This document shows positions 5,373 to 36,628 of a DNA stretch of 36,676 bases, in pieces. The stretch covers positions 1-36,676 of the forward strand of contig JALVWV010000196.1 in NCBI GenBank assembly GCA_027023145.1, given 5' to 3'. Position numbers and translations under genes: made by a program. The notes below the pieces were generated by a model that saw only the letters and a program-made list of their open reading frames with translations, was not told the origin of the DNA and did not search any database. The DNA comes from Campylobacteraceae bacterium. GTDB taxonomy: Bacteria; Campylobacterota; Campylobacteria; Campylobacterales; Sulfurovaceae. The stretch's first letter is position 1. The number at the start of each line of letters is the position of its first letter.

Positions 5373-5407
5373 AGTGAGAAGTGAGAGGTGAGAAGTGAGA
5401 AGTGAAA
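5373..5407 (+). repeat. tandem heptamer array AGTGAGA x5
   Basis: Units read directly: agtgaga agtgaga ggtgaga agtgaga agtgaaa, followed by ttgg. Confidence 0.9.
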
Positions 5408-5420
5408 TTGGATGGTGGGT

Positions 5421-5497
5421 GGGGACGCGACTTCAGTCGCGTAGTTGGTTGATAGTGGATGGTGGATGGCGAGAAGGGGCTGGGACTTCAGTCCCAC
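5421..5497 (+). repeat. two CTTCAG-core hairpin modules (GGGGACGCGACTTCAGTCGCGT and AAGGGGCTGGGACTTCAGTCCCAC)
   Basis: Stems are at 5425-5442 and 5482-5495. The same modules with the same flanks recur at 6991-7012, 26667-26710, 15465-15485, 21044-21066, 30863-30885 and 34268-34290. Confidence 0.9.
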
Positions 5498-5601: not shown

Positions 5602-6831
5602 TCAATCCTTGATACAGCGGACAGGTTTTCCATGAGCACGGTAGCCATTGGTATATGCAGATGCATCTACAGAAGCAATACCTATATATGCTCCTCCAGT
5701 ACCCCCATCCTCATGCAACAACCACATACCACCCCACGTACCCTGACGATAAAGGGCAGCAGTATTTCCAACTCGATAACCTGCCGAAGGCAGCTTCAGG
5801 AAAGAGTTAAAAGCATTGACCCTTCGGTCGTCATCGTTGCCGGGTTTTTGTGTACTGTTTTTGTCAATCTGCGCACTATCGTCGTCAAGCAACTCCGCTT
5901 TCATCTCATCAAGAGTCGCTACCCGGAAGCCGACCGGACAGACAAACGAACCGTCGGTCTTGGACCAGTTGGCGATCCGTTGGCTGCCGTTGGCATCCAA
6001 GCTATCAATTACCCAGTCACGACGAGAACTGTTGTCATCTGTGATAAAGTTGCCGTGTTCCACAAAGGCAATATCGGTTGCCAGCGTAGCGGTAGTGCCG
6101 CTGAGTGGATCCTCGTGCCCGTCGAAGTTGCGACCCCATTGGTAATAATCCCCATAACAGGCCACATCGTTGTACGCCGTGCAGACGCGGGCAGCTCCGA
6201 GGTTGCGATCGAGGAAGATCTTGCCGGTGTAGGGGGACTTGACGGCTCCATACGTGGTGCCGTTGGCGGTGATACTGAATGCCGTCACCGTAACGGTACG
6301 GGTAACACTTGCACTGTTGCCAGCACTATCAGTAGCGGTATAGGTGAGGGTATAGGTTCCCGGTGTATCGGTATCGACATTACCACTGACGGTGACGGTG
6401 ATATTTTCATCCACATCATCCGTGGCCGTCGCTCCCGGATCGGTAAAGGTCTCGAACTGAACAAGACTCATGATTGTATCCCCGGTGAGAGAGACGGTCG
6501 GAGCTGTCGTATCGGCCACAGCGGTGACGGTAACTTTCCGGGTCTTGGTAGCGGTGTTCCCGGCTGCATCGGTGGCGCTATAGGTGAGGGTATAGGTTCC
6601 GACCGTACTCGTATCTACACTGCCGCTCACGCTCACCGTGACATTGCCATCCACATCATCGACGGCCGTGGCACCTGGATCGGTAAAGGTTGCTCCCTGA
6701 GCGACACGCATAGTGGACGCACCGTTGAGGGTGATCACCGGAGCCGTCGTATCGGCTCCACTTCCACATGCCGTGATCAGCACGGCAACCATGGCCACTG
6801 TGAGCCATTGCATCCATTTGATGTTATGCAT
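5602..6831 (-). CDS. lipoprotein with two Ig-like (DUF5011-type) repeats and a C-terminal FISUMP (Fibrobacter succinogenes major paralogous) domain
   Basis: 409-aa ORF. Lipobox LITACGSG. Two ~100-aa repeats (APVITLNG...FTDPGATA.DDVDGN.TV.VSG.VDT...GTYTLTY.ATD.AGN). C-terminus has LDRNLGA...CYGDYYQWGR and CPVGFRVATLDEM. AGGAGG lies 5 nt upstream of the ATG. Confidence 0.8.
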   Translation of the reverse strand: MHNIKWMQWLTVAMVAVLITACGSGADTTAPVITLNGASTMRVAQGATFTDPGATAVDDVDGNVTVSVSGSVDTSTVGTYTLTYSATDAAGNTATKTRKVTVTAVADTTAPTVSLTGDTIMSLVQFETFTDPGATATDDVDENITVTVSGNVDTDTPGTYTLTYTATDSAGNSASVTRTVTVTAFSITANGTTYGAVKSPYTGKIFLDRNLGAARVCTAYNDVACYGDYYQWGRNFDGHEDPLSGTTATLATDIAFVEHGNFITDDNSSRRDWVIDSLDANGSQRIANWSKTDGSFVCPVGFRVATLDEMKAELLDDDSAQIDKNSTQKPGNDDDRRVNAFNSFLKLPSAGYRVGNTAALYRQGTWGGMWLLHEDGGTGGAYIGIASVDASAYTNGYRAHGKPVRCIKD

Positions 6832-7012: not shown

Positions 7013-8233
7013 TTATTCAAAATCGAGCATCTCCTTCGCCTGGATCATATCCTTGTCCCCCCGGCCGGAGAGGTTGATGAGGATGGTTTTACCGGAGAGG
7101 GCTTCGTGGGGCATTTTTTTGAGGTATGCCACGGCGTGGGAGCTCTCGAAGGCGGGGATGATTCCCTCGCGTTGGCTGAGCCAGACAAACGCATCGAGGG
7201 CTTCGGTGTCGGTGATGTGATCATACGTGACGATGCGCTCGTCTTTGAGGTAGGCGTGTTCCGGGCCGATGCCGGGGTAGTCGAGTCCGGCACTGATGGA
7301 GTGGGCTTCGAGGATCTGGCCGTCGTCGTCCTGGAGGAGATAACTCATCTGGCCGTGCAGCACGCCCGGTGCTCCTTTGGCGAGGCTTGCACCGTGTTTG
7401 GAATCCAGCCCGAGGCCGCCTGCTTCGATCCCGATGCACTCGACACTCTCGTCTTCGAGGAAGTGGTTGAAGATTCCGATGGCGTTGCTTCCACCGCCGA
7501 TGCAGGCAATCACTGTGTCCGGGAGGGTACCGGCGGCTTCCTGGATCTGGGCGCGGGCTTCCCAGCCGATGATCGACTGGATGTCGCGGATCATCATCGG
7601 GTAGGGGTGAGGGCCGGCGACGGTGCCGATGACGTAGAAGGTATCCCGCGCATGGGTGACCCAGTGGCGAATCGCATCGTTCATGGCGTCCTTGAGGGTA
7701 CGCGATCCCGACTCGACAGCATGGACCTTGGCTCCGAGGAGCTTCATCCGAAAGACATTGAGTTCTTGACGGGCGACGTCTTTGGCACCCATGAAGATCT
7801 CACACTCCAGCCCGAAGAGGGCTGCGACGGTGGCCGTGGCGACCCCGTGCTGCCCCGCACCGGTCTCGGCGATGATCTTTTTCTTGCCCAGACGCTTGGC
7901 GAGGATCGCCTGAGCGACGGTGTGGTTGATCTTGTGTGCTCCGGTGTGGTTGAGGTCTTCGCGCTTGAGGTAGATGCGGGCATCGAGTTCGTCGGAGAGG
8001 TTCTCAGCATAGTAGAGAGGGCTGGGGCGGCCGACGTAATGCTGATAATAATCATGCACCTGCCCCCAGAACTCCGGATCGAAGCGGACTGCTTCGTAGT
8101 CGGCTTTGAGCTGCTCGAGGACAGGCATGAGGGTCTCGGGGACGTAGCGACCGCCGTAGGTGCCAAAATGCCCGAGATCATCAGGATCGTAGGGGGAGGG
8201 TTTGGGGATATAGTATGTGTCGGTTGTGTTCAT
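7013..8233 (-). CDS. trpB: tryptophan synthase beta chain
   Basis: 406-aa ORF with [11 protein letters not shown], the PLP-lysine context [21 protein letters not shown] and GGGSNAIG. Confidence 0.95.
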
Positions 8234-8268: not shown

Positions 8269-8289
8269 AAATTAGAAATTAGAAATGAA
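8269..8289 (+). repeat. tandem heptamers AAATTAG x2 plus AAATGAA
   Basis: Read directly in the trpB/recN divergent intergenic region. Confidence 0.7.
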
Positions 8290-9900: not shown

Positions 9901-11103
9901 TCAATAAAAATACCCCATTGGCAGAGCCACACACTTCTCGTTAATATGTAGCACGTTTTTTCCCATATAAAAGACGATACCCAAAACATCTTTCGATGAT
10001 TTCTTTTGATACTCCACAATATGCCTAAAGTCATCTTTGCTCACTCTGGTTGAAGATTTTACCTCAACAGCTATCATTCTATTTTGACGCTCCAAGATAA
10101 AATCTATCTCTTTTTTATCATTGGTGAGGTAGTGGTAGATTTTGGTATCATCTATAGCAAAACTACAATGTTTGAGCAACTCATTAAAGACAAAAGTTTC
10201 TACCAGTGCCCCTTTATACCGAGAGTTTTCAAATGCTTCTATGGAGTAGATGCCCAAGAAATAACTCATCAGCCCTGTGTCGTTTAGAAATATCTTTGGT
10301 GACTTGACAAACTGCTTTCCGATGTTTTCAAAAAAAGGTCGCAATGTATGGAGCTGAAAAGTCTGCTCCAAAATGACCAGATAGTTTTCACAAGTCTCTA
10401 TTCGTACTCCTACCTCTTTGGCTAGTTTTGATTTATTGAGCAAAGAGGTGCTCCGTGGAGCAATGATATTGACAAAACGATAAAAGCTGTCTATATCTCT
10501 AAACTCCCCCAAATTACGGGCATCACGCTCTATGTAAGTGCTCACATAAGAGGAAAACCAAAGTTTTTTCTCCAGTGGAGTTTTTAAATTTTGCACATCA
10601 GGATAGCCACCCTTTAAGATAGACTCTACCACACTATTGGTCTCTACCTCAGTAGTGCTAAAGTCATGGACAAAGAGTTTATCTACTATGTTTTCATTCG
10701 GTTTTTTCGTCTTCTCTTTTGCGCTCAATGGGTACAAGTCTATCTCTATAATACGACCTGCCAATGTATCCTTGGCCTGTTTCATATCTAAAATATTAGC
10801 AGAGCCTGTCAGCAAAAAATCCCCATTATTTCGTTTTTTATCCACGTATGTTTTGATGGCTTCTAAGAGCTCTGGTACCTTTTGTATCTCATCAATGGTA
10901 GCAGGCTTTGGTAGTGCTTCCACAAATCGTACAGGGTCATCTTTGGCATTAACGCGTGTAGAGACATCATCTAAGACAACATAATTTTTTCGTATCTCCA
11001 TAGCCAATGTCGACTTGCCCACCTGCCGTGCACCTTTGAGCAACACAACAGGAGAAATCTTAAGTGCCGTCTCCAAGATAGGTACAATGCTTCTTTTTAG
11101 CAT
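9901..11103 (-). CDS. AAA+ ATPase of the AAA_14/DUF4143 (COG1373) type with a PD-(D/E)xK-like C-terminal motif
   Basis: The ORF track starts at TTG 11109; I prefer the ATG at 11103 (MLKRSIV...). Walker A GARQVGKST and Walker B-like ATIDEIQ. C-terminal EIDFILE...IAVEVKSS. The gene is visibly AT-rich compared with its neighbours. Confidence 0.75.
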   Translation of the reverse strand: MLKRSIVPILETALKISPVVLLKGARQVGKSTLAMEIRKNYVVLDDVSTRVNAKDDPVRFVEALPKPATIDEIQKVPELLEAIKTYVDKKRNNGDFLLTGSANILDMKQAKDTLAGRIIEIDLYPLSAKEKTKKPNENIVDKLFVHDFSTTEVETNSVVESILKGGYPDVQNLKTPLEKKLWFSSYVSTYIERDARNLGEFRDIDSFYRFVNIIAPRSTSLLNKSKLAKEVGVRIETCENYLVILEQTFQLHTLRPFFENIGKQFVKSPKIFLNDTGLMSYFLGIYSIEAFENSRYKGALVETFVFNELLKHCSFAIDDTKIYHYLTNDKKEIDFILERQNRMIAVEVKSSTRVSKDDFRHIVEYQKKSSKDVLGIVFYMGKNVLHINEKCVALPMGYFY

Positions 11104-11224
11104 AATCAATGCCTTATTGGATTTGTATTTTGTAAATTATACTATTATAATAGTTAAAATTATGCTATCTTGGCAATATTTTTAGAGATTTTGTGGATTT
11201 TCTGTTTATGTATGTTTTTTCCCT

Positions 11225-11250
11225 CGTTCCGCATCTCCTGATGCGGAATG
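11225..11250 (-). repeat. AGGA-loop hairpin module (minus strand: GGTATG-CATTCCGCATC-AGGA-GATGCGGAACG-AG)
   Basis: 11-bp stem including one G-T pair, with a 4-nt loop. The flanks match copies at 16041-16074 and 26755-26788. It sits at the junction of the AT-rich ATPase gene and higA. Confidence 0.85.
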
Positions 11251-11319
11251 CATACCAAACTGCTGACAACCCAAAACCTCCTGGAGATACGAAAACACGA
11301 AGCAAGGAATCCTGCCGTT

Positions 11320-11622
11320 TTATGCCACCTCTTCAGCAGCGTGAATCGTCTCGAAAACGCTCCGTTTCTTTTTGGCAACGTTGTAGAGGTCGTAGCTGTT
11401 CTGGAGGTTGAGCCAGAGTTCGGGGGAAGTGCCGAAATATTTTGAGAGCCTCAGTGCCATTTCGACGGTGATGCCTCTTTTTTGATTGACCAGTTCATTG
11501 ATCGCGCGAAACGATGTGTGAAGTGCATCTGCCAGTTTGGTCTGCGTGATACCCATGGGGATCAAAAACTCCTCTTTGAGGATTTCTCCGGGATGGGTGG
11601 GTGCTCGCTGTAACTCTATCAT
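11320..11622 (-). CDS. higA: HigA-family antitoxin (XRE helix-turn-helix)
   Basis: 100-aa ORF with HPGEILKEEFL, ITQTKLADAL, ALRLSKYFGTSPELWLNLQ. AGGAGAG RBS. Located 17 nt downstream of higB. Confidence 0.9.
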   Translation of the reverse strand: MIELQRAPTHPGEILKEEFLIPMGITQTKLADALHTSFRAINELVNQKRGITVEMALRLSKYFGTSPELWLNLQNSYDLYNVAKKKRSVFETIHAAEEVA

Positions 11623-11639
11623 GGTCTCTCCTTCTACTT

Positions 11640-11921
11640 TCAGTGATAATCCACTATCTTGACATCATAAGCATGGTTGTCTTCAAATCTGAAAATCACC
11701 CTGAATTGCTTGTTGACCCGTATGGAATAGTATCCTTTCAAGTCGCCTTTCAGCCCCTCGAGTCTGTTGGCCGGAGGGATTTTCAGGTCATTCAGATCAC
11801 GGGCATTGTTCAAATAGTCCAATTTTCGCAATGCTACTTTTTGGATATCCGGAGGCAGTGTCCTGCTCCTCCCTGTGGTATAAAATGCTTTACACGCTTT
11901 GTCCTGAAAACTTTTGATCAT
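11640..11921 (-). CDS. higB: HigB toxin (RelE/ParE superfamily, plasmid maintenance system killer type)
   Basis: 93-aa ORF with IKSFQDKA.KAFY, LKIPPANRLEGLKGDLKGYYSIRVNKQFRVIFRFE, and ending VDYH. Toxin-first order is typical of higBA. Confidence 0.9.
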   Translation of the reverse strand: MIKSFQDKACKAFYTTGRSRTLPPDIQKVALRKLDYLNNARDLNDLKIPPANRLEGLKGDLKGYYSIRVNKQFRVIFRFEDNHAYDVKIVDYH

Positions 11922-15393: not shown

Positions 15394-15428
15394 GAATTAG
15401 GAATTAGGAATGAGGAATTAGGAATGTT
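15394..15428 (+). repeat. tandem heptamer array GAATTAG x5, starting at the first base after the hisB stop
   Basis: gaattag gaattag gaatgag gaattag gaatgtt, then ggtatgcg. Confidence 0.9.
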
Positions 15429-15433
15429 GGTAT

Positions 15434-15453
15434 GCGTTGCTTTGCAACGCTTT
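15434..15453 (+). terminator. intrinsic terminator-like hairpin GCGTTGC-TTT-GCAACGC plus TTT (repeat module)
   Basis: 7-bp GC-rich stem, 3-nt loop and T-run, downstream of hisB. The same module occurs at six other sites. Confidence 0.6.
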
Positions 15454-15556
15454 CAATTAAATAGGGGGTGGGACTTCAGTCCCACAAACATTGTTCGCGA
15501 TGTATTGTGCAGTGTGCGCCATTGTATATTGTTGCAAACCCCATACAGGAGAACTC

Positions 15557-20130: not shown

Positions 20131-21007
<877 letters not shown>

Positions 21008-21014: not shown

Positions 21015-21035
21015 GCATTGCTTCGCAATGTTTTT
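21015..21035 (+). terminator. terminator-like hairpin CATTGC-TTC-GCAATG plus TTTTT (variant of the GCGTTGC module)
   Basis: Downstream of fabI, in the same position within the cassette as at the other loci. Confidence 0.55.
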
Positions 21036-21089
21036 ATATGAAAAGGGGTTGGGACTTCAGTCCCATAAACATCGCTTGCGATGTATCGT

Positions 21090-21249: not shown

Positions 21250-21263
21250 ACGGGTATGACTCA

Positions 21264-21438
21264 ATGAATAATGAAAAATGAAAAATGAATAATGAATAAT
21301 GAAAGATGAAAGATGAAAGATGAAAGATGAAAGATGAAAAATGAAAGATGAAAAATGAAAGATGAAAAATGAAAGATGAAAAATGAAAAATGAATAATGA
21401 ATAATGAAAGATGAAAGATGAAAGATGAAAAATGAATG
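21264..21438 (+). repeat. 25-unit tandem heptamer array ATGAAAR/ATGAATA; the last unit contains the TrmH-family start codon
   Basis: I counted 24 complete units over 21264-21431 (168 bp): ata aaa aaa ata ata aag x5 aaa aag aaa aag aaa aag aaa aaa ata ata aag x3 aaa. Unit 25 is ATGAATG at 21432. Confidence 0.95.
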
Positions 21439-22193
21439 AAAAAAAAGACTCCGAAGCGTACCTCGCCAAAAAAGCCTTCTTCGATAAAGTGCTGACCCTC
21501 TATGGTCGTCATGCGGTGATGGAGGCTCTTTTGGATGAGGCTTTGACGATCCATAAGCTCCATCTCTCCACTTCTAACAAACCCTCTGACGAGATCGATC
21601 GGATGGTTCAGATCGCCGATGCGCGGGGGATTCCTGTTGCACACCACGACAAGCAGGCGCTTTCGCGCATCTCCCGAAATGCCAGACAAGATCAGGGGGT
21701 GGCACTGGATGTGGTGATGGATCATTTTGTGGATGAGGCGGAGTTTTTAAAGCAGGAGCGTTATCGGATTATCGCTCTTGACGGCGTGACCAATCCGCAG
21801 AATCTGGGGATGATTATCCGCTCGTGTGCGGCGGGGCGGGTCGATGCACTGCTGCTGCCGACCAGAGGCAATGCCCAGATTTCTCCACTGGTGATTCAGG
21901 CGAGTGCCGGGACGCTTTTTCGCCTGCCGATTATCAAAACCTCCGATCTTGTTGCTTCGCTGGAGCGCTTTAGAGAGCAGGGCGCAAGGGTGTATGCTCT
22001 CGAAGCCGATGCTCCTCTTGATTATCGTGAAGTGCCAGTTGAGGGGAAAAATATCTTTGTCCTCGGCAATGAATCAGAAGGGATCTCCCCGGCAGTCTCC
22101 CGTACCTGCAATGCTGCCATTGCCATCCCCATGGCACGCGGCGTCGAATCGCTCAACGTCGCCGTGACCGCTTCGCTTTTGGCCTTTTGTTAG
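21432..22193 (+). CDS. TrmH/SpoU-family RNA 2-prime-O-methyltransferase (RlmB-like)
   Basis: 253-aa ORF with LYGRHAVMEAL, ALDGVTNPQNLGMIIRS, VLGNESEGIS, GVESLNVAV. The ATG at 21432 is the first in-frame ATG after a TGA and is itself the 25th unit of the upstream heptamer array. Confidence 0.85.
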   Translation: MNEKKDSEAYLAKKAFFDKVLTLYGRHAVMEALLDEALTIHKLHLSTSNKPSDEIDRMVQIADARGIPVAHHDKQALSRISRNARQDQGVALDVVMDHFVDEAEFLKQERYRIIALDGVTNPQNLGMIIRSCAAGRVDALLLPTRGNAQISPLVIQASAGTLFRLPIIKTSDLVASLERFREQGARVYALEADAPLDYREVPVEGKNIFVLGNESEGISPAVSRTCNAAIAIPMARGVESLNVAVTASLLAFC

Positions 22194-22197: not shown

Positions 22198-22620
22198 GTG
22201 GTTTACCTCTCGCTCTTTATCACTGCCTTCATCTCGGCAACCCTTTGGCCGATGGGGAGTGAAGCCGTCCTCCTCTACGATATCACGCAGGGACACCCCA
22301 TCCTAGCTCTCTGGGCAGTAGCTACCGCCGGCAACACCCTCGGAGCGACACTCAACTACTGGATGGGTCTGGGTGGTGAAGCGATGCTCGAAGAGCGCGG
22401 CCGCATCCGCCCTGGAGCCCTCCGCCCTATCCACCGCTATTTCGAGCGTTATGGGGCGGCGACCCTGCTGCTGAGCTGGCTGCCGATTGTCGGGGATCTC
22501 TTTACCTTCGTAGCCGGGATTGTGCGGTATCCTTTTTGGCGGTTTGTCGTGTGGGTGCTAGTGGCCAAAGGAGGACGGTATGCGGTGTTGGTGTGGGGGG
22601 TGTTGCGGGTTGCGGGTTAG
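22198..22620 (+). CDS. YqaA/DedA-related (SNARE-associated domain) membrane protein
   Basis: 140-aa ORF with a GTG start, containing FISATLWPMGSEAVL and ATAGNTLGATLNYWMG. The last 7 codons lie in a heptamer array. Confidence 0.7.
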   Translation: MVYLSLFITAFISATLWPMGSEAVLLYDITQGHPILALWAVATAGNTLGATLNYWMGLGGEAMLEERGRIRPGALRPIHRYFERYGAATLLLSWLPIVGDLFTFVAGIVRYPFWRFVVWVLVAKGGRYAVLVWGVLRVAG

Positions 22621-22641
22621 GGGTTACGTGTTACGTTTTGG
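22600..22641 (+). repeat. heptamer array GTGTTGC GGGTTGC GGGTTAG GGGTTAC GTGTTAC GTTTTGG spanning the stop of the yqaA-like gene
   Basis: Read directly. The stop codon TAG (22618-22620) lies inside unit 3. Confidence 0.9.
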
Positions 22642-22811: not shown

Positions 22812-23723
22812 TTATTTTTTGAGGCTTTTGTAAATCCGCTCCATCCCCGGCACCTCCACCCCCAACCGTTCCCCTTCATGGACGATATACCCGCACAACG
22901 CTTCAACCTCGGCGGGTTTGCCCTGCTCGATGTCAAGCTGGAGGGAGGTTTTGGCTCCAGGGGCGACTTTGGCGGCCTGGGTGAGGGCGGCGGTGATATG
23001 TTCTTCGGTCAGGGGGATATCTTTGACCTGCGCGACGGCTGTAATTTCCCGCATGAGGGTTTCCAGTTCTTCAGCATGTTCGGTAGTGATGGCATTCATG
23101 GGTTTGTTATGGTAAGCTGTCAGGGCGGCGAAGGCGGAGATGAAGAGGTATTTTTTCCAATTATCAAGTGTGATGGAGTCGCTGTAGTGGTGGCGGAGTC
23201 CGGCGGTGTCGAAGAGCTCGGTGAGGGCGTGGACGATGGCAGGGTCGACTGCCTGTTTGCTCCCCCAAACGAGGCGGAAGACTTTGCCCCGCTTGCGGAC
23301 CGTGCCGGGGGCGGTGATGTTGGAGAGGATGTAGATGTGGCCGTCGAGGATGGTGGAGTTGGGGTAGTATCGGCGGATGGTATCGGCATGTCCGACGCCG
23401 TTAAGGAGGGGGAGGAGGATGGTGTTGGAGGTGATGGTGGGTTTCAGCTGCTTCAGCGTCGCTTCCAGGGAGGTGGCTTTGACACTGAGGATGATGAGGT
23501 CAAAGGTGCCCAGCTCTCCGGGATTGTCGGTTGCCTGAGCTGGATGGACGGTGTAGTGCTCGTTATCTTCTTCGATCCTCAGACCCTTTTCCCGGATCGC
23601 TTCAAGATGCTTACCTCGTGCCAGCAGAGAGACGTGGGCATCGGTGTGGCGGATCAGCTGAGCGCCGACGTAGCTTCCTACTCCGCCGCTGCCGGCGATG
23701 AGGATTGTGGTGATGGGATTCAT
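22812..23723 (-). CDS. panE: 2-dehydropantoate 2-reductase
   Basis: The ORF track starts at 23807; I prefer ATG 23723 (MNPITTILIAGSGGVGSYVG, a Rossmann GxGxxG at the N-terminus). KTSLQLDIEQGKPAEVEAL is typical of the ApbA C-terminal domain. The ATG lies 1 nt after the stop of the upstream gene. Confidence 0.85.
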   Translation of the reverse strand: MNPITTILIAGSGGVGSYVGAQLIRHTDAHVSLLARGKHLEAIREKGLRIEEDNEHYTVHPAQATDNPGELGTFDLIILSVKATSLEATLKQLKPTITSNTILLPLLNGVGHADTIRRYYPNSTILDGHIYILSNITAPGTVRKRGKVFRLVWGSKQAVDPAIVHALTELFDTAGLRHHYSDSITLDNWKKYLFISAFAALTAYHNKPMNAITTEHAEELETLMREITAVAQVKDIPLTEEHITAALTQAAKVAPGAKTSLQLDIEQGKPAEVEALCGYIVHEGERLGVEVPGMERIYKSLKK

Positions 23724-23724
23724 G

Positions 23725-24201
23725 CTATTTGTTCTTTGTGATGATAGCACCGCTGGCTTCGTCGAGGTCGGCAGCCATGATTTTGACGAGTTTGAGGCAG
23801 TTGGCATCTTTCATGTTGTGCTTGAGTGTCCAGTATTCTGGGTTGGTATAGACCAGGGTGACTTTTCCACTGAGCTCTCGGTAGACCCCGATACGCACTG
23901 GAAGATCGGCGGCCAGTGTCGGGTTGCAGTCGAGGAGCTTGGAGTCGATGAGAGGGTTGCTCAGATCGACGCTGAGGGTGGGTTTGAGGTACATTTTTTC
24001 CTGAGTCGCCAGCGGGGTGTGATCCATCTGGTGGATAGGGGTGTATTGTTTGGGGGCAAGTGCTTTGCTGAAGCGGGCGAGGGTCTCGGTCGTGTTGTAG
24101 TCGCTGACGGTTTTGTGGATGAAGGTGCTCTCCCCGGTCTTGGTGCATCCGGTGAGGGCGAGGAGGGCGGTGAGGGTGAGGAGGGGGAGGAGGTGTTTCA
24201 T
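23725..24201 (-). CDS. DUF302-domain lipoprotein
   Basis: 158-aa ORF. Lipobox LALTGCT. Matches the DUF302 pattern I recall: MDH...A, NP..., DLPVRIGVY...GKVTLVYTNPEY. Confidence 0.65.
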   Translation of the reverse strand: MKHLLPLLTLTALLALTGCTKTGESTFIHKTVSDYNTTETLARFSKALAPKQYTPIHQMDHTPLATQEKMYLKPTLSVDLSNPLIDSKLLDCNPTLAADLPVRIGVYRELSGKVTLVYTNPEYWTLKHNMKDANCLKLVKIMAADLDEASGAIITKNK

Positions 24202-24220
24202 TCGGGTGTCCTTTTTGCGT

Positions 24221-24248
24221 GTTAAGTGCTACGTGTTACGTGTTGCGT
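24221..24248 (+). repeat. heptamer array GTTAAGT GCTACGT GTTACGT GTTGCGT followed by TTTTGG
   Basis: Read directly, upstream of the DUF302 lipoprotein gene. Confidence 0.8.
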
Positions 24249-24305: not shown

Positions 24306-24326
24306 AAAAGCGTTGCTGCGCAACGC
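24306..24326 (-). terminator. intrinsic terminator of ychF (minus strand GCGTTGC-GCA-GCAACGC plus TTTTATT)
   Basis: 7-bp stem at 24310-24326 with an A-run at 24306-24309 on the plus strand. It is the same module as at the plus-strand loci. Confidence 0.65.
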
Positions 24327-24332: not shown

Positions 24333-24367
24333 AACTCCTAATTCCTAATTCCTCACTCCTAATTCAC
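24333..24367 (-). repeat. heptamer array on the minus strand (GTGAATT AGGAGTG AGGAATT AGGAATT AGGAGTT), starting 2 nt after the ychF stop
   Basis: Reverse complement of aactcct aattcct aattcct cactcct aattcac. Confidence 0.9.
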
Positions 24368-25697: not shown

Positions 25698-25970
25698 ATG
25701 ACTATAAAAATAGATAACCCCGAAATAGAGCACTTCTTTATAAATGAATTCAAATCGGATATTAAACAATTTTCTGAATTTATTTTGATGAATCTTGAAA
25801 AATACAAAAAACAAAATGACTTCAATATTACTCCTCTTGATCCGCAGAAGAACTCTTATAAATTAGAATTTGACGATATTGAAGAGGTTGATGAAAGTGC
25901 CAATCCCTTTAAAGATATTGATGATGTAGCTACATATGCTCGAAGATTACGAGAAAATGCATGGCGATAG
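25698..25970 (+). CDS. putative antitoxin partner of the downstream PIN toxin (family not recognised)
   Basis: 90-aa acidic ORF with an AAGGAG RBS. It overlaps the PIN gene by 10 nt. The DNA is AT-rich. The call rests on context only. Confidence 0.55.
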   Translation: MTIKIDNPEIEHFFINEFKSDIKQFSEFILMNLEKYKKQNDFNITPLDPQKNSYKLEFDDIEEVDESANPFKDIDDVATYARRLRENAWR

Positions 25971-26670: not shown

Positions 26671-26707
26671 ACGCGACTTCAGTCGCGTTTTGTGGGACTG
26701 AAGTCCC
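26671..26707 (+). terminator. back-to-back hairpins ACGCGACTTCAGTCGCGT-TTTT and GGGACTGAAGTCCC(AGCCCC)-TTTCTT; likely terminator of the small lipoprotein gene
   Basis: The first stem starts 5 nt after TAA 26664-26666 and is followed directly by TTTT. The second is the inverted copy of the GGGGCTGGGACTTCAGTCCCAC module. Confidence 0.6.
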
Positions 26708-30297: not shown

Positions 30298-30774
30298 ATG
30301 AAAACCATCGAAGGAAATTTGAGCGTCGATCGCTCCAAAAAAGTTGCCATCATCAGTGCACGATTCAACCACTTTATCACCGACCGTCTCGTCGAGGGAG
30401 CCAAAGATGCCTACGCCCGCCATGGTGGGCAAGCAGAGGATCTCGATTTGATCCTCGTTCCCGGAGCGTTTGAGATCCCTTTTGCTCTGGACAAGGCGTT
30501 TGCATCCGGTAAGTACGATGCCGTCTGTTGTCTTGGAGCCGTGATCCGGGGGGCGACACCGCATTTTGATTATGTCTCAGCCGAAGCGACCAAAGGGGTA
30601 GCCAATGTCACCCTCAAACATGGCAAGCCTGCTTCGTTTGGTGTCCTCACAGTCGACAGCATTGAGCAAGCCATCGAGCGTGCCGGGACAAAAGCGGGCA
30701 ACAAAGGAGCTGAAGCGATGACGGGATTGATCGAGATGATCAATCTGTATGAGGAATTAGGAGTGAGGAATTAG
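30298..30774 (+). CDS. ribH: 6,7-dimethyl-8-ribityllumazine synthase
   Basis: 158-aa ORF with [43 protein letters not shown]. The last 7 codons and the stop lie in an AGGAATT heptamer array. Confidence 0.95.
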
Positions 30775-30779
30775 GAATT
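30752..30779 (+). repeat. heptamer array AGGAATT AGGAGTG AGGAATT AGGAATT spanning the ribH 3-prime end and stop
   Basis: Read directly. TAG 30772-30774 straddles the junction of units 3 and 4. The array is followed by TTGG. Confidence 0.9.
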
Positions 30780-30786: not shown

Positions 30787-30807
30787 GCGTTGCTTTGCAA
30801 CGCTTTT
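30787..30807 (+). terminator. intrinsic terminator-like hairpin GCGTTGC-TTT-GCAACGC plus TTTT after ribH
   Basis: Identical to the hisB copy. Confidence 0.65.
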
Positions 30808-30832: not shown

Positions 30833-30908
30833 AAAAATGGCACGAACGCATAGAGATCAAACAGGGGCTGGGACTTCAGTCCCACAAACATCGTTTGCGA
30901 TGTATCGT

Positions 30909-31433: not shown

Positions 31434-31461
31434 GTGGGTAGTGGGTAGTGTGTAGTGGGTA
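31434..31461 (+). repeat. heptamer array GTGGGTA x4, starting at the first base after the nusB stop
   Basis: gtgggta gtgggta gtgtgta gtgggta. Confidence 0.9.
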
Positions 31462-31607: not shown

Positions 31608-32702
31608 ATGAAAAAAACCGTTAAAAAGAGCTCTACCCGCTACCCGCTACCCGCTACCCGCTTGTCTATAAGCGAAGCGATAGACTTAATCGAACACGCC
31701 GACCTCAAAGAACTCGGACGTATGGCATATGCTCGCAAGCAGGAGCTTCACCCCAAAGGGGTTACCACTTTCGTTGTCGATCGCAACATCAACTACACCA
31801 ATATCTGTTGGGTGGACTGCAAATTCTGTGCGTTTTATACCCATGAGAAAAAAGAAGATGCTTATGTACTGAGCTTTGAGGAGATCGACGCCAAGATCGA
31901 TGAGCTCGTGGCCATCGGTGGGACGCAGATTCTCTTCCAGGGAGGGGTGCATCCCAAGCTGGAGATCGAGTGGTACGAAGATCTGGTGGAGCATATTCAT
32001 CAAAAGTATCCTGAAGTGACCATCCACGGTTTCTCAGCCATAGAGATCGACTATATTGCCCGCCGTTCTCACTTGAGCATTCGTGAAGTGCTCGAACGGC
32101 TCCAAGCCAAAGGACTCAGCTCGATCCCGGGAGCCGGAGCCGAGATCCTTAGCGACCGGGTACGCGATATCATCGCTCCGAACAAACTTGACACGGCTAC
32201 CTGGATCGATGTCCACCGCCAAGCCCACACAATCGGGATGAAATCGACCGCGACGATGATGTACGGCACCGTAGAGACGACCCGGGAGATCGTGGAGCAC
32301 TTCGATCACATCCGCCGCTTACAGGATGAGACGGGCGGGTTTCGGGCGTTTATCATGTGGAGTTACCAAAGCGACAACACCGAACTCAAACGCCAACTCC
32401 CCACTCTGAGCAAAACAAGTTCCAACTATTATCTTCGGTTATTGGCTGTGGCACGTCTCTTCCTTGATAATGTCCCCAATATCCAGAGCTCTTGGGTCAC
32501 TCAGGGAAGCTACATCGGTCAGATGGCACTCCGCTGGGGAGCCAATGACCTCGGCTCGACGATGATGGAAGAAAACGTCGTCTCCGCCGCCGGAGCCCAC
32601 AACCAAATGAATCAGGAAGAGATGATCCGCCTTATTGCTGACATCGGAGAGAAACCGGCTAAGCGTAATACGGCGTATGAGATTTTGGAGAGATATTATT
32701 GA
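31608..32702 (+). CDS. radical SAM enzyme of the futalosine (mqn) menaquinone pathway, MqnC/MqnE (CofH-like) family; C versus E cannot be told apart by eye
   Basis: 364-aa ORF. Cluster motif NICWVDCKFCAF, GGTQILFQGG, TATMMYG, GGFRAFIMWSYQ. Codons 9-18 are encoded by a CTACCCG heptamer array. Confidence 0.85.
   Translation: MKKTVKKSSTRYPLPATRLSISEAIDLIEHADLKELGRMAYARKQELHPKGVTTFVVDRNINYTNICWVDCKFCAFYTHEKKEDAYVLSFEEIDAKIDELVAIGGTQILFQGGVHPKLEIEWYEDLVEHIHQKYPEVTIHGFSAIEIDYIARRSHLSIREVLERLQAKGLSSIPGAGAEILSDRVRDIIAPNKLDTATWIDVHRQAHTIGMKSTATMMYGTVETTREIVEHFDHIRRLQDETGGFRAFIMWSYQSDNTELKRQLPTLSKTSSNYYLRLLAVARLFLDNVPNIQSSWVTQGSYIGQMALRWGANDLGSTMMEENVVSAAGAHNQMNQEEMIRLIADIGEKPAKRNTAYEILERYY
31633..31660 (+). 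repeat. heptamer array CTACCCG x4 inside the 5-prime end of the mqn-family CDS; it is the reverse complement of the GGGTAG-type array at 31434-31461
   Basis: ctacccg x4 read directly; it encodes S-T-R-Y-P-L-P-A-T-R. Confidence 0.9.
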
Positions 32703-32730
32703 AGTAGGAAGTAAGAAGTAGGAAGTAGGA
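32703..32730 (+). repeat. heptamer array AGTAGGA AGTAAGA AGTAGGA AGTAGGA, starting at the first base after the mqn-family stop
   Basis: Read directly; followed by ATTTTGG. Confidence 0.9.
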
Positions 32731-32740: not shown

Positions 32741-32761
32741 GCGTTGCTTGGCAACGCTTTT
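32741..32761 (+). terminator. intrinsic terminator-like hairpin GCGTTGC-TTG-GCAACGC plus TTTT
   Basis: Same module as at the other loci, with a different loop. Confidence 0.65.
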
Positions 32762-32962: not shown

Positions 32963-34204
32963 ATGCCAGCCACCCAAACCACCTTTCACCTCCACGGGGT
33001 TGAAATCCCCGTGATTTTTGAAGAGGAGCGGTATCTTCCGATTGTTTCATTGCAGTTGGTGTTTGAAGACAGCGGAGCACTCAGTGATCTCAATCCGGGT
33101 CAAGCGCGGATGACAGCGCGGCTACTGGGAGAAGGATCACGCAAGGCGGGTTCAGCGGCGTTTGCCGAGCGTCTGGAGTCCCGGGCGGTGAGCCTGAGTG
33201 CTCACGCAGGGCGGGAGACGATGGTGATCGAGCTGAGTGCGCTCAAGGAGAACTTCGGGTATGGAGCCGGGATGCTGGCCGAACTGCTGGCAGATCCCAA
33301 CTATTCTCCTGAAGCATTTGAAACCGTTCAGGCAAGCACGCTCGGTAAACTCACCCAGAAACAGAGTGACTACGATTATCTCGCGTCTGTCGGGCTCTCG
33401 CGCCTGCTCTTTGAAGGTACCGGGCTGTCTGAACCGATTGACGGGACGCTTGAGAGTGTGCGAATGATGGATCCGGAGGATTTGGTCTACCAATTCCGCA
33501 CCCATGTGGGCTTGAGCAACCTTACCATTGTCCTCGGAGGGGATCTGAGCTGGGAAGAGGCGCAAACGTATCTTCAGCAGGCGCTCACACCGCTCAAGCA
33601 AACATCCGTCGTCCCCATCGGTCATTTTACGGCGACCGATACCCCCCGGATCGATCGGGCGTTTGTCCAGACAGAACAGGCGTATATCTATTTTGGAGCG
33701 CCGCTGGATGTGGCGTACGATGGCGCAGAGACCCATCTGGCCAAAATCGCCGCGTTTGTGCTGGGCAGCAGCGGTTTTGGAAGCCGCCTCATGGAAGAAG
33801 TCCGGGTCAAGCGGGGACTGGCGTATTCTGCTTATGGGCATTTTGCCCTCAAACGCTCGGTGAGTTACTTCACCGGACATGTCCAGACCAAACTTGAGAG
33901 CGAAGAGGAAGCCATCGAAGTGATTGGCGAAGTGGTCTCCGAGTTTGTCAAGGACGGCATCACCGCCAAAGAGCTCGAAGGAGCCAAAGCCTTCCTCCTT
34001 GGGAGTGAGCCTTTGCGCACCGAGACCCTCTCTCAGCGTCTGGGGCGGGCGTTTGATGAGTATTATGCGCACAAACCTCTGGGTGAGAGTGCCCGTCAGC
34101 TGGAGCAGATCGAAGGGGTGAGCCTCGAGGAGATCAACGCGTTTATCCGGGAGCATGAGGAGATTGAGAAGCTTAGTTTTTATGTGGTAACAAGGGAGAA
34201 TTAG
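32963..34204 (+). CDS. M16 (pitrilysin) family peptidase-like protein lacking the HxxEH zinc motif (probably a non-catalytic subunit)
   Basis: 413-aa ORF with the two-domain M16 layout (R/Y pair region VRVKRGLAYSAYG). The position where HxxEH is expected reads ARMTARLLGEG. Confidence 0.75.
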   Translation: MPATQTTFHLHGVEIPVIFEEERYLPIVSLQLVFEDSGALSDLNPGQARMTARLLGEGSRKAGSAAFAERLESRAVSLSAHAGRETMVIELSALKENFGYGAGMLAELLADPNYSPEAFETVQASTLGKLTQKQSDYDYLASVGLSRLLFEGTGLSEPIDGTLESVRMMDPEDLVYQFRTHVGLSNLTIVLGGDLSWEEAQTYLQQALTPLKQTSVVPIGHFTATDTPRIDRAFVQTEQAYIYFGAPLDVAYDGAETHLAKIAAFVLGSSGFGSRLMEEVRVKRGLAYSAYGHFALKRSVSYFTGHVQTKLESEEEAIEVIGEVVSEFVKDGITAKELEGAKAFLLGSEPLRTETLSQRLGRAFDEYYAHKPLGESARQLEQIEGVSLEEINAFIREHEEIEKLSFYVVTREN

Positions 34205-34226
34205 GAGTTAGGAATTAGGAGTGAGG
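34199..34226 (+). repeat. heptamer array AATTAGG AGTTAGG AATTAGG AGTGAGG spanning the last codon and stop of the M16-like gene
   Basis: Read directly; followed by AATTTTGG. Confidence 0.9.
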
Positions 34227-34237
34227 AATTTTGGTGG

Positions 34238-34258
34238 GCGTTGCTCTGCAACGCTTTT
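34238..34258 (+). terminator. intrinsic terminator-like hairpin GCGTTGC-TCT-GCAACGC plus TTTT
   Basis: Same module; a duplicate lies at 34386-34406 with loop GTA. Confidence 0.65.
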
Positions 34259-34315: not shown

Positions 34316-34408
34316 AGATTGAGAAGTTGAGTTTTTATGTGGTAACGCGGGAGAATTAGAGGTTAGAAATTAGAAGTTTTGGTGGGCGTTGCGTAGCAAC
34401 GCTTTTAT
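34316..34408 (+). repeat. non-coding duplicate of the M16-like gene tail plus heptamer array plus terminator hairpin (copy of 34161-34260, one heptamer shorter)
   Basis: agattgagaagttgagtttttatgtggtaacgcgggagaattaga... aligns with agattgagaagcttagtttttatgtggtaacaagggagaattagga... The offset is 155 bp. Confidence 0.85.
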
Positions 34409-34410
34409 CT

Positions 34411-34666: not shown

Positions 34667-36628
34667 ATGCAAACCGATGAAGCGAAACAACTGTTCAAAA
34701 AACTCAAGATTCATACGCTGCTGGATTTGGCATTGATTGTGCCAATCTCGTACAACGACACCACCCTCTCAGCAGCACTTGATCTCGGCAAAACGGTGAC
34801 GGTGGAGGCGACGGTAGAGGAGATGGGGATGTTTGGGGGGAAGCTGCGGGTGACGTTTTTCCTTCCGCAGTTTGGCAAGCGGGTCTCTTCGACCTTTTTC
34901 CGTGCCACACCGTACCATTACGACACGTTCAAAGTGGGATCACATCACACCATCCAGGGACGACTCGAAGAGTATCGGGGATATCTCCAGATCCCGCAGC
35001 CTCGATCGATCAAAGAGGTTGGTGCTATTACTCCCAAGTATAAAACTTCCCTCAAAGCGACTGAGATCCGCGATCTGATCCGCACCTATATCACGGAGAA
35101 AAATCTTTTTGATGAGGGGTTGGACTCCCGTGAAGTGGCGACGTTGATGCACCTGCATTTCCCTAAGAGCATCGAAGAGATTTATCACGAAGGGGCACTC
35201 AAGCCTGAGCACACCCAGACACTCAAATTCATCGAAGCGTACAACCATCTGCGGAAACTGCGCAGCAAGCGGCATGACTACCCGGCCATGGAGGCGCTGA
35301 CGGGGGAGATCACACCGTTTGTCTCAGGATTGCCCTTTTCCCTGACAGCAGAGCAGGAAGAGACGATTGCCGCGATTCAACAGGATCTCTCGCGTAGCGA
35401 TCGGGCGGCCAAGCGGATGATCGTCGGAGATGTCGGTTCGGGCAAGACGATGGTGATTCTTGCCGCAGCAATGATGGCGCTGCCTCATCGGAGCATCCTC
35501 ATGGCACCCACGTCGCTGCTGGCACTTCAGCTGTATGAAGAGGCACAGAAGCATCTGCCCGATTTGGTACGTATCGCCCTGGTGATGCAGGGGCACACGG
35601 ATGAGAGTTACCGGGAGGCGGACTTTATCATCGGTACTCATGCACTGCTCTATCTCGAAGATCTGCCGGTTGCGCCGTTGGTGATGGTGGATGAGCAGCA
35701 CCGCTTCGGTACGCAGCAGCGGCAGATGTTGGAGGCGTTGGTTAGCCGTCAGAGCAGAAAGAGCAGAAAGGGGTCAGGTGATAACGATTCATCTGCTGGC
35801 GCAGACAAATCATTATCACCAGACCCCAACCCAGACAAATCATTATCACCTGACCCCTCCAACCCTGAGAAACCTCATTATCTCCAGTTTTCGGCGACCC
35901 CGATTCCCCGTACGCAAGCGATGATGGAGTCGGAGCTGGTGGATGTAAGCCTCATCACCACGACGCCGTTTGAGCGGACAGTGACGACTCGGACGGTTGG
36001 GCGGCCGGAATTTCCCAAGCTCTTGGAGCATATTCGGCAGGAGATTGCGCAGGATCACCAAGTCCTGATCGTCTATCCTCTCGTCGAGGAGAGTACCGAA
36101 GTGCCGTATCAATCACTCGATGAAGCACGGGGATACTGGGAGGAGCGGTTTGATGGGGTGTATGTAACACACGGAAAGGACAAGGACAAAGAGGAGGTGC
36201 TCCTGCGTTTTCGGGAGGAGGGCAATATCCTGCTGGCTACGACCGTCGTGGAAGTGGGGATCTCTCTGCCACGCTTGACCCTCATCGTCATCGTCGGTGC
36301 CGAGCGTCTTGGCTTGGCGACGCTCCACCAGCTGAGAGGGCGTGTCGGGCGCAACGGCTTGGAGAGCTGGTGCTATCTCTTTTCCAACACCCCGGATAAT
36401 GAGCGACTGAAGCAGTTTTCCGTTACGACCAACGGATTTGAGATCGCCAAGCTGGATTTGAAATTTCGTGACAGCGGTGATATTCTAGATGGGACGATCC
36501 AAAGCGGGCAGAAGTTTCGCTGGCTGGATATGGGGGAGGATGAGGATATGGTGGCGTATGCGAAGGAGAGAGTGGGGAAATTAGGAATTGAACCCTCCGA
36601 AAAATCAACCAAAAAAACGGTAAAATAA
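34667..36628 (+). CDS. recG: ATP-dependent DNA helicase RecG, with an unusual ~40-aa low-complexity insertion between helicase motifs II and III
   Basis: 653-aa ORF with GDVGSGKT, VDEQHRFG, FSATPIPRT, TTVVEVGI and QLRGRVGR. N-terminal wedge/OB region present. Confidence 0.9.
   Translation: MQTDEAKQLFKKLKIHTLLDLALIVPISYNDTTLSAALDLGKTVTVEATVEEMGMFGGKLRVTFFLPQFGKRVSSTFFRATPYHYDTFKVGSHHTIQGRLEEYRGYLQIPQPRSIKEVGAITPKYKTSLKATEIRDLIRTYITEKNLFDEGLDSREVATLMHLHFPKSIEEIYHEGALKPEHTQTLKFIEAYNHLRKLRSKRHDYPAMEALTGEITPFVSGLPFSLTAEQEETIAAIQQDLSRSDRAAKRMIVGDVGSGKTMVILAAAMMALPHRSILMAPTSLLALQLYEEAQKHLPDLVRIALVMQGHTDESYREADFIIGTHALLYLEDLPVAPLVMVDEQHRFGTQQRQMLEALVSRQSRKSRKGSGDNDSSAGADKSLSPDPNPDKSLSPDPSNPEKPHYLQFSATPIPRTQAMMESELVDVSLITTTPFERTVTTRTVGRPEFPKLLEHIRQEIAQDHQVLIVYPLVEESTEVPYQSLDEARGYWEERFDGVYVTHGKDKDKEEVLLRFREEGNILLATTVVEVGISLPRLTLIVIVGAERLGLATLHQLRGRVGRNGLESWCYLFSNTPDNERLKQFSVTTNGFEIAKLDLKFRDSGDILDGTIQSGQKFRWLDMGEDEDMVAYAKERVGKLGIEPSEKSTKKTVK
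35770..35857 (+). repeat. palindrome-bounded in-frame insert within recG: 15-bp perfect inverted repeat GGGGTCAGGTGATAA / TTATCACCTGACCCC enclosing a 30-bp tandem duplication
   Basis: Arms at 35770-35784 and 35843-35857. CAGACAAATCATTATCACC is repeated at 35802-35820 and 35832-35850. Upstream there is a 9-bp tandem AGCAGAAAG x2. Confidence 0.85.

Follow-up and report, generated by a model that had tools for sequence, protein, structure and literature searches.

Heptanucleotide tandem arrays of varied sequence adjoin gene ends and terminator-like hairpins in a lineage of Campylobacterota

We analysed a 36,676-nucleotide contig from a vent-type Campylobacteraceae bacterium (GenBank assembly GCA_027023145.1, contig JALVWV010000196.1; this whole stretch is referred to here as the window) in which tandem arrays of 7-nucleotide (nt) units lie close to gene boundaries, many of them directly upstream of a shared hairpin. 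The arrays are long simple-sequence repeats (LSSRs) that resemble the short tandemly repeated repetitive (STRR) sequences of cyanobacteria, and they are rampant in a Nitratifractor/Sulfurovum-like lineage, being a property of this clade and not of the window locus alone. They are specific to period 7, have a characteristic composition and geometry, turn over among relatives, are seeded locally, take part in a composite structure and affect the termini of proteins. We consider it probable that they are heptanucleotide microsatellites generated by slippage, which form the 5' module of terminator/REP (repetitive extragenic palindromic) mosaics resembling bacterial interspersed mosaic elements (BIMEs) and which are filtered by their compatibility with translation.

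Within the window, Tandem Repeats Finder (TRF) called 16 period-7 arrays, compared with a mean of 0.64 and a maximum of 2 in 100 dinucleotide-preserving shuffles of the same DNA, which we used as the chance level (Table 1). TRF recovered an array at every position listed in a preliminary description of this stretch and added four that were not on that list (21263-21436, 31633-31662, 34354-34375 and 5446-5469). The description had placed its arrays at gene ends, and for 8 of the 11 this was right, as they adjoin or overlap a genuine same-strand stop (hisB, fabI, yqaA-like, ychF, ribH, nusB, mqnC and M16-like). The other three, at 5373, 8269 and 24221, lie upstream of opposite-strand genes or in a divergent promoter region, and had been assigned to gene ends because the first reading used spurious open reading frames (ORFs). 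Our gene map, built from ORFs and a codon-usage model and checked with NCBIfam and Pfam, revealed minus-strand genes behind such spurious plus-strand ORFs, namely those for an Ig-like protein (5602-6831), a PALP enzyme (7013-8233), PanE (22812-23807) and a DUF302 lipoprotein (23725-24201). The plus-strand ORF 23698-24225, for example, has no Pfam match and runs antisense to the DUF302 lipoprotein gene, and the array at 5373-5407 sits between two minus-strand genes, the Ig-like gene and the gene at 2273-5287.

Table 1. Period-7 arrays, hairpin-1 copies and a two-unit relic in the window
Feature	Coordinates	Strand	Context
AGTGAGA x5 + TTGG + GACGCGACTTCAGTCGCG hairpin	5373..5407	+	85 nt before the start of minus-strand gene 2273-5287, on its non-coding strand
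AAATTAG x3	8269..8289	+	divergent promoter region; the real neighbour is the minus-strand PALP enzyme gene 7013-8233
GAATTAG x5	15394..15428	+	begins at first base past the hisB TGA
Hairpin-1 (GCGTTGC TTT GCAACGC TTT) after hisB	15434..15453	+	joined to array by GTTGGTAT
AGGAATT-type array after the fabI TAG	20971..21007	+	units degenerate directly after the stop and clear from 20980 on, 9 nt past TAG
Hairpin-1 variant (GCATTGC TTC GCAATGT TTT) after fabI	21015..21034	+	
AATGAAA x25	21263..21436	+	runs into start codon of SpoU/TrmH-like methyltransferase gene (21432-22193)
GTGTTGC/GGGTTRC/GTGTTAC array	22600..22641	+	encodes VLRVAG + TAG of yqaA-like gene; then TTTTGGTAT, without hairpin-1
GTTACGT-type x4 + TTTTGG	24221..24248	+	non-coding strand, ~19 nt upstream of minus-strand DUF302 lipoprotein start (23725-24201); not at a gene end
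Hairpin-1 downstream of ychF array	24307..24326	-	
AGGAATT x5	24333..24367	-	2 nt past the ychF stop
AGGAATT/AGGAGTG x4	30752..30779	+	encodes EELGVRN + TAG of ribH
Hairpin-1 after ribH	30787..30806	+	
GTGGGTA x4	31434..31461	+	begins at first base past the nusB TGA; 5' arm of long-range inverted array pair
CTACCCG x4	31633..31662	+	G-poor strand is sense; in frame in MqnC N-terminal extension; 3' arm of inverted pair
AGTAGGA x4	32703..32730	+	begins at first base past the mqnC TGA
Hairpin-1 after mqnC	32741..32760	+	array + hairpin form a 60-nt indel relative to L116
AATTAGG/AGTGAGG x4	34199..34226	+	gives last codon (N) + TAG of M16-like gene
Hairpin-1 after M16-like gene	34238..34257	+	
AATTAGA x3	34354..34375	+	within ~155-bp tandem duplicate of M16 3' end
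Hairpin-1, second copy in M16 duplicate	34386..34405	+	
Two-unit relic AAATTAGGAATTGA	36578..36591	+	inside recG 3' end, encodes KLGIE

To place the arrays in a wider context, we searched for related DNA. The window has a GC content of ~52% and a GC skew that is positive along its full length, and the best NCBIfam models for its proteins are PRK08415 (FabI), PRK08445 (MqnC) and PRK10917.2-3 (RecG), which we take to be built from epsilonproteobacterial sequences. The closest DNA found was L004, a metagenome-assembled genome (MAG) labelled 'Campylobacteraceae bacterium' with 83-95% nucleotide identity over ribH-nusB-mqnC-M16-recG, and further matches came from Nitratifractor and Sulfurovum MAGs and from metagenome contigs. 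An exact search with the HisB protein of the window gave no record. Our wider sample of 896 kb comprised the window, 16 Campylobacterota MAG loci picked by the hairpin pattern alone and 80 metagenome loci picked via MqnC. In this sample TRF called 119 period-7 arrays, 97 of which (81%) are intergenic even though ~93% of the DNA is called coding. Another 22 fall inside ORFs, 20 of them antisense and most of these near the called start, which suggests over-extended start calls or N-terminal extensions.

The signal is confined to one period. Among arrays scoring >=40 in the spacers of these 97 loci, 63 had period 7 and 11 had period 14, together 74 of 96. With a uniform detector, periods 5, 6 and 8-11 vanished above 2-3 copies; period 7 showed a second mode at 4-4.5 copies with a sharp drop at >=5, and TRF copy numbers clustered at 4.0-4.7. 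The units fall into at least 60 classes among 118 arrays, which bears out the constant period and variable unit of the preliminary description. On the G-rich strand the bases are 35% A, 32% G, 29% T and 4% C, with no C at all in 77 of the 118 arrays, and the G-free complement contains a start codon in 7 of 110 cases and an SD-like (Shine-Dalgarno-like) motif in none. Stop triplets are only moderately enriched (78% versus 63% expected). Stops in all three frames occur in 56% of arrays and in 3.5% of ordinary 30-nt segments downstream of stops; periodic sequence of equal composition would give 70%, however, and we therefore rejected selection for three-frame stops and regard them as a by-product.

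The shared hairpin, hairpin-1, has the form GCRTTGC-NNN-GCAAYGY-TTT (search pattern GCRTTGCNNNGCAAYGYTTT) and is present in 7 copies in the window, where 0 are expected. All seven directly follow an array, in sense orientation and downstream of a stop. The stem has 7 bp (9 bp in both copies after the M16-like gene) with 3-5 G-C pairs, closes on a 3-nt loop and is followed by TTTT; the copies are among the top matches of a terminator scan and have a folding energy of ~-10 kcal/mol, with the adjoining array largely unpaired. Judged from these sequence features, hairpin-1 with its T-run, where it lies in sense orientation after a stop, is most likely an intrinsic terminator. The shared TTTTGG junction reported earlier occurs in 6 of the 7 copies, while the hisB copy has GTTGG. 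It had also been claimed that the unit varies as the junction stays the same. Within the window this is only partly true, as a single unit family (AGGAATT, AGGAGTG, AGTAGGA, AGAAATT), in fixed register with the junction, makes up all seven arrays that are linked to the hairpin. Across related genomes it does hold: in 16 of 16 independent Campylobacterota MAG loci the hairpin is directly preceded by a heptamer array, with RTTTYGGTAT as the junction, and the units vary among them (AGTGAGG, ATTGAGA, AATGAAT, AGTGAAT, GAGTGGA, AAAGTGA and others). Those window arrays that have clearly different units (AGTGAGA, GGGTTRC/GTGTTAC, GTGGGTA, AATGAAA, CTACCCG) lack a following hairpin-1. We rejected a fixed register between stop and array, as offsets to the first in-array stop triplet (7, 8, 5, 7 etc.) were inconsistent on manual inspection.

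The hairpin-linked arrays of the window are copies of one dispersed composite of ~135 nt, contrary to the earlier suggestion of a generating mechanism rather than the spread of one sequence. This composite is common to the hisB, fabI, ribH and M16 ends and consists, in order, of the array, TTTTGGTAT, hairpin-1 with its T-run, (A)AAAGGGGCTGGGACTTCAGTCCCACAAAC, a small ATCGCTTGCGAT hairpin and a REP-like GTAGGGTGCGCAATTGCGCACC. Hairpins of the GGGACTTCAGTCCC type give 24 matches in the window at <=2 mismatches, compared with 0.28 expected. They and REP-like GTAGGGTG palindromes fill most spacers (for example at 5482-5495, 15470-15483, 21051-21064, 26694-26707 and 30870-30883), and REP-like elements also come after mqnC in many relatives. 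Inverted arrays bracket some of the spacers. Around the hairpin-1 modules and the 135-nt composite of the window we detected no target-site duplication, and we accordingly rejected assignment to the miniature inverted-repeat transposable elements (MITEs); instead, the hairpin modules shared in one order by the hisB, fabI, ribH and M16 ends, with the 24 GGGACTTCAGTCCC-type matches, agree with the REP/BIME type. Enterobacterial BIME/REP elements and the BOX elements of Streptococcus pneumoniae are dispersed intergenic hairpin mosaics at gene 3' ends, with modular order and concerted evolution; REP-like elements carry a 5' GTAG motif, and BOX has a variable number of internal tandem units, the boxB unit being ~45 bp long. 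The composite shares with them its dispersal as hairpin mosaics at gene 3' ends, its modular order, its concerted evolution within a genome and the 5' GTAG motif, and with BOX the variable number of tandem units. We know of no heptamer microsatellite module in BIMEs.

In two loci, L098 and L027, several modules of a 4 x 7 array, TTYGG and hairpin-1 stand in series in one spacer, each with a different and internally perfect unit, as would be expected if homogenisation within an array outruns point mutation and its length is limited. These are the densest examples seen: from three to at least six perfect 4-unit arrays (e.g. GTCGTTT, GTCGGCA and GTCGCAA, each x4) occupy single spacers at L027 4214-4313 and at L098 2926-3418 and 5416-5852, and in the L098 spacers they alternate with hairpin-1 variants. 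Outside the clade, a Ruminococcaceae MAG of an unrelated phylum (L045, ~4290-4351) has three GTTTTTA/GTGTTTA units directly upstream of a GCGTTGC-NNN-GCAACGC hairpin. A Pseudanabaena palindromic repeat, found in loci among L001-L115 (e.g. L007 2183-2202), has the identical core AAAGCGTTGCNNNGCAACGCTTT; we rejected kinship with it, and the match is apparently coincidental because the repeat there is a long, MITE-like palindrome without heptamer arrays. The idea that GCGTTGC is a DNA-uptake sequence was also set aside, as solitary copies are few and at about chance level. The array-hairpin module was not found in viral contigs, and the window gave no Rfam match and no tRNA gene. AT-shifted variants were few among the hairpin-1 copies compared for covariation, a sample biased by the pattern used to find them.

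We next compared orthologous sites, at which the same arrays recur in independent assemblies (L004, L053, L196-L198). The ribH end has 4 units in the window, 5 in L004 and none in L117, where ribH and nusB overlap (TGATG). At the nusB end the units have changed in concert, from GTGGGTA in the window to GAGGGTA in L004 or the reverse, and L116 and L117 have no array there and a hairpin that begins with GGGTA. The array and hairpin-1 at the mqnC end form a clean 60-nt insertion relative to L116, in which the stop is followed by three bases and then a REP-like GTAGGGTG element; in L004 this position is occupied by another array (GTGTTAC). At the yqaA end, 2, 4 or 5-6 units of differing sequence accompany 93-94% protein identity. 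The recG end of L116 has a 6-unit GGAATTA array encoding ELGIRS and the stop, which agrees with the view that the window sequence is a relic; here two units are left and the ORF continues for 12 codons. The spoU leader has 25 units in the window, ~4 in L053 and none in L196 and L198. Every unit of this AATGAAA/AGATGAA array contains an overlapping ATG and TGA (ATGA), and the 25 copies could be a length-variable leader or promoter spacer.

Such differences in copy number and unit at orthologous sites, together with the concerted change of units and local seeding, are best fitted by a slippage-type process, one of the two mechanisms raised in the preliminary description. The other, templated addition during insertion, is unsupported because a fixed template would give one unit; in addition, there is no flanking target-site duplication and the arrays vary without re-insertion. 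Seeds can be recognised at several sites. About 60 RibH orthologues end in NLYxEL[DAE] before the stop, and because the unit GAATTAG is already present in their native codons GAA TTA Gxx, the ribH array appears to have grown from these conserved codons, adding GVRN. GTAGG is common to the mqnC-end unit GTAGGAA and to the adjacent REP at its 5' end, the nusB-end unit shares GGGTA with the hairpin found at that site in L116 and L117, and GTTGC/GTTAC units resemble the 7-nt hairpin arm GCGTTGC.

Several arrays extend into coding sequence, and their translations in ribH, the yqaA-like gene and the M16-like gene (EELGVRN, VLRVAG and N, each before the stop) had been read correctly. When orthologues were aligned, as had been proposed, the array-encoded C-terminal residues proved to be lineage-specific extensions in RibH, M16 and RecG. 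In the yqaA-like gene the array covers the final 19-21 nt of the ORF, and the C-terminal tails of the orthologues vary with their arrays (VLRVVA, AGVLGVKC and VLRVAG, each ending at a stop). At the other end of a protein, (CTACCCG)4 encodes STRYPLPATR in frame in the N-terminal extension of MqnC, and its reading frame is identical in L004 and in L119, a 38%-GC relative that has no alternative start codon. Remodelling of the predicted protein termini by arrays is thus documented for RibH, YqaA, M16, RecG and MqnC. Next to the M16 array there is also a ~155-bp tandem duplication (34160-34260 and 34315-34410) comprising the last ~35 nt of the M16-like gene, the array and hairpin-1.

The arrays are strongly polarised with respect to genes. 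For the G-rich strand, the median distance to a gene boundary is 23 nt at the 5' end and 121 nt at the 3' end, and the 5' end is the nearer one in 60 cases versus 20, where random placement in the same spacers gives 40. This 5' end faces a same-strand stop 45 times and an opposite-strand gene start 44 times, and the placement of arrays 'exactly at gene ends' does not extend to the wider sample. Stops are nevertheless favoured over random placement: 30 arrays begin <=15 nt from a same-strand stop, compared with a mean of 12.5 and at most 24 in 2000 random trials, and within this distance the G-rich strand is sense in 30 arrays and the opposite orientation occurs in 8. Where two neighbouring arrays differ in orientation, they converge in 25 cases and diverge in 0, and about half of these pairs have matching units and are true inverted repeats. 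On the mRNA, C-free arrays therefore come after stops and G-free arrays before starts, and both often bracket one spacer; the start-side arrays, with the G-poor strand as sense, cluster 11-42 nt from start codons.

We propose that slipped-strand mispairing, acting almost only at a 7-nt register, creates the arrays and turns them over. Seeds would be local 7-mers, taken from the last native codons of a gene, from a REP-like element at its 5' end or from the 7-nt arm of the hairpin, and would expand to about four to five units. Because homogenisation would be faster than mutation, each array could drift to its own unit yet stay uniform. The arrays do not stand alone, and the commonest class is the 5' part of a dispersed module of ~60 nt, made up of a C-free 4 x 7 array, RTTTYGGTAT, a hairpin with a 7-bp stem and 3-nt loop, and a T-run. 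This module in turn sits in a BIME-like mosaic of ~135 nt, alongside the GGGACTTCAGTCCC-type and GTAGGGTG-type (REP-like) hairpins, that is copied or homogenised among the loci of one genome, and the array would serve as an unstructured spacer of ~30 nt in the 3' untranslated region (UTR) ahead of the putative terminator. Compatibility with translation would then act as a filter. Since stop codons contain no C, the stop-rich C-free strand may adjoin or replace the last codons of an ORF. Without G, none of the three start codons and no Shine-Dalgarno sequence can form, and the G-free complement would therefore do no harm, and be tolerated, shortly before a start or within an N-terminal extension.

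Both slippage and the composite structure have good support; we infer that the arrays were generated by slippage and that selection accounts for their polarity as well as for the limit on their length near four units. A number of observations weigh against this explanation or limit it. Pure slippage predicts a monotonic decay of copy number, not a sharp four-unit mode with a ceiling near 4.7, and array length is thus limited or set by something besides slippage. Neither the near absence of C from one strand nor the clustering of start-side arrays 11-42 nt from start codons is accounted for by slippage. Because the sequence of the hairpin stem is conserved across genomes of 45-61% GC, it suggests recognition or mobility beyond the role of a generic terminator. 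Modules that face away from gene starts are numerous, and they have no obvious sense transcript to terminate. In the array-free relatives L116 and L196, REP hairpins immediately adjoin the stop codon, which shows that a spacer can be dispensed with. Finally, since three-frame stop content (56%) is not above the 70% expected, stops are not selected beyond composition.

A different origin, which is possible but which we regard as unlikely, is that array, RTTTYGGTAT and hairpin together form a mobile terminator cassette of MITE- or REP-like type, perhaps moved by a RAYT-type (REP-associated tyrosine) transposase, with the array made or extended at the 5' junction on insertion, perhaps by staggered 7-nt cuts or by repeated insertion and excision. 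The clean presence or absence of 60 nt at the mqnC end, with GTAGG on both flanks of the insert, would fit such a cassette, as would the constant position of the array on one side of the hairpin, the modules in series, the abundance of REP-like GTAGGGTG elements and the fact that paralogous composites of the window are more alike than the orthologous L004 spacer. Against it, there is no consistent target-site duplication right of the hairpin or of the 135-nt composite, and the check with NCBIfam and Pfam revealed no RAYT/Y1 or other transposase gene in the window. Moreover, copy number and unit change at fixed orthologous sites without re-insertion, many arrays have no adjacent hairpin-1, and arrays are seeded from native codons.

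Another explanation is that the arrays act through non-B structures, either G-quadruplexes or stems and cruciforms from inverted array pairs that might, for instance, be RNase III sites or join a stop to the next start. The 25:0 excess of convergent pairs, about half of them complementary, would be in keeping with stems. One such pair is the nusB-end (GTGGGTA)4 and the (CTACCCG)4 in the 5' part of mqnC, 170 nt apart and complementary when G-U pairs are allowed, which are predicted to pair over 31 bp in a long-range stem (z = -8); the ribosome-binding site and start codon of mqnC would lie inside it. This inverted pair is also present in L004. Most window arrays, however, have no complementary partner, and single arrays fold weakly (mean -1.5 kcal/mol). 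GGG occurs in 8 of 118 units (7%) versus 15% expected by chance, and GG in 37%; with GGG below chance, G-quadruplexes cannot explain the four-unit mode in the sampled Campylobacterota. We regard an action through non-B structures as improbable.

Two proposals assign the arrays a function in RNA. In the first, to which we give little credence, the module is an insulator that is under selection, depends on direction and is recognised through its period and composition instead of its sequence. An outgoing transcript, at either end of a gene, would run through an unstructured, C-free, stop-rich stretch and then reach an intrinsic terminator, and the C-free RNA should be a poor Rho substrate. Transcripts entering a gene would carry the G-free complement, whose YC dinucleotides every 7 nt could be a compact Rho-loading site. 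If true, this would explain the strict polarity away from genes, the convergence of array pairs (25:0), the lack of C and the ceiling near four units, none of which is explained by slippage alone. A dedicated factor that measures the 7-nt spacing is a related possibility. In the second proposal, which appears very improbable, the arrays are sites for a multimeric RNA-binding protein that reads triplets 7 nt apart and modulates the adjacent terminator or translation, candidates being HutP-like (UAG-N4), TRAP-like ((G/U)AG) and CsrA-like (GGA) proteins; HutP recognises UAG triplets 4 nt apart. A constant period, a copy number held tightly at about four whatever the unit, the position of arrays directly 5' of a terminator-like hairpin and the presence of GAG or TAG in 53% of units (39% expected) would suit a protein of this kind. 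There are, however, at least 60 unit classes and no universal motif (TAG 28%, GGA 23%, equal to chance, and SD-like 19%), and we rejected CsrA, SD-like and HutP motifs as a shared signal, none being enriched or universal. Half of the arrays have the G-poor strand as sense, and arrays are gained and lost freely among close relatives.

Finally, chance repeats or assembly artefacts, for which only the low TRF scores of a few 3-unit arrays (8269, 34354 and 5446) speak, have a negligible probability given 16 arrays observed versus 0.64 in shuffles, orthologous arrays in the independent assemblies L004, L053 and L196-L198, and a signal specific to period 7.

The explanation by slippage, which we favour, also agrees with what is known of other heptamer repeats. 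The STRR sequences of heterocystous cyanobacteria consist of a few fixed units (CCCCAGT, TTGGTCA, CAACAGT), and to our knowledge neither a link to stop codons or terminators nor a four-unit ceiling has been described for them. The likeness drawn in the preliminary description is apt, but we rejected membership, given units such as AGGAATT, AGTGAGG and GTGTTAC and a host in the Campylobacterota. As far as the literature is summarised in two later papers, heptamers are the most over-represented LSSRs in prokaryotes and polymerase slippage has been proposed for them (Mrazek 2007, summarised in PMC4679880 and PMC4692102); in the same summaries, STRRs and heptanucleotide LSSRs resemble our arrays in the excess of heptamers over other periods, intergenic location, strand-asymmetric G/C content and proposed slippage. 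The arrays show the features of LSSRs in the sense of Mrazek (2007), namely 7-nt tandem repetition beyond chance, instability among relatives and a preference for non-coding DNA, the last being expected of a unit whose length cannot be divided by 3.

Among repeats already described, the nearest to our arrays is GGGAATC of Xanthomonas, reported with the GGGGA(C/T)T repeat of Nostoc as intergenic heptamer repeats (Rehm et al. 2015, PMC4692102). Those repeats likewise have period 7, a strongly intergenic location, a clear four-unit mode and frequent convergent inverted pairs, lie much nearer to the ORF on their 5' side than to the next one (28 versus 160 nt, compared with 23 versus 121 nt for our arrays) and vary in length and sequence among close relatives (PMC4692102). 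Unlike the arrays described here, with at least 60 classes and depleted GGG, they have one dominant G-tract unit and a demonstrated G-quadruplex, to which the authors tied the four-unit preference (PMC4692102); because GGG units are depleted in the sampled Campylobacterota, that account of the preference is not general. Our arrays further differ in their link to a conserved terminator-like hairpin and REP-like mosaics, in overlapping ORF ends and remodelling protein termini, and in their phylum. The TAACTGA direct repeats of marine Beggiatoaceae (MacGregor 2015, PMC4679880) are also intergenic heptamer arrays, with 2-6 copies, forward stop triplets that limit ORF-end overlap and occasional in-frame copies in reverse orientation within ORFs. 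They have a single unit, in contrast, and lie mostly forward and immediately upstream of starts over the ribosome-binding site, with no hairpin (PMC4679880). We rejected membership of this family, as its unit is absent and the start-proximal arrays here have the G-poor strand as sense. Our literature search found no paper describing heptamer arrays in Campylobacterota or naming heptamers together with Nitratifractor, in line with the earlier statement that no equivalent was known for this type of genome, but families of the same geometry do exist in Xanthomonas and Nostoc (PMC4692102) and in Beggiatoaceae (PMC4679880).

Other features of the window lie apart from the arrays. A low-GC island (9901-11921, ~40% GC) carries an AAA_14/DUF4143 ATPase gene and a HigB-toxin/HTH_3-antitoxin pair, and a PIN-domain toxin gene is found at 25961-26335. 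Upstream of recG and of a TATAAT box, a near-palindrome TATG(A/T)CAATTTGACATA (34617-34640) is kept in dozens of loci (e.g. L134, L146 and L173) from relatives of 31-55% GC, and may be an operator site.

Taken together, our results identify the arrays as a new and unusually varied example of known heptamer repeats, not a new kind of system. They are distinctive in the diversity of their units at constant period and length, their link to a conserved terminator-like hairpin, their strict polarity and their remodelling of protein termini. With dozens of units that share one period, length and polarity, the lineage is a natural experiment that separates period and composition from sequence, and it removes the G-quadruplex account offered for the four-unit mode in Xanthomonas. 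The repeats are physically tied to terminator-like hairpins and stop codons, and protein termini are rewritten by them. For annotation, this means spurious antisense ORFs, extended start calls and stop codons that shift between strains. If the polarity reflects function, in terminator context or insulation, the arrays would amount to a compact design rule for 3' UTRs in Campylobacterota, whose terminators are poorly characterised.

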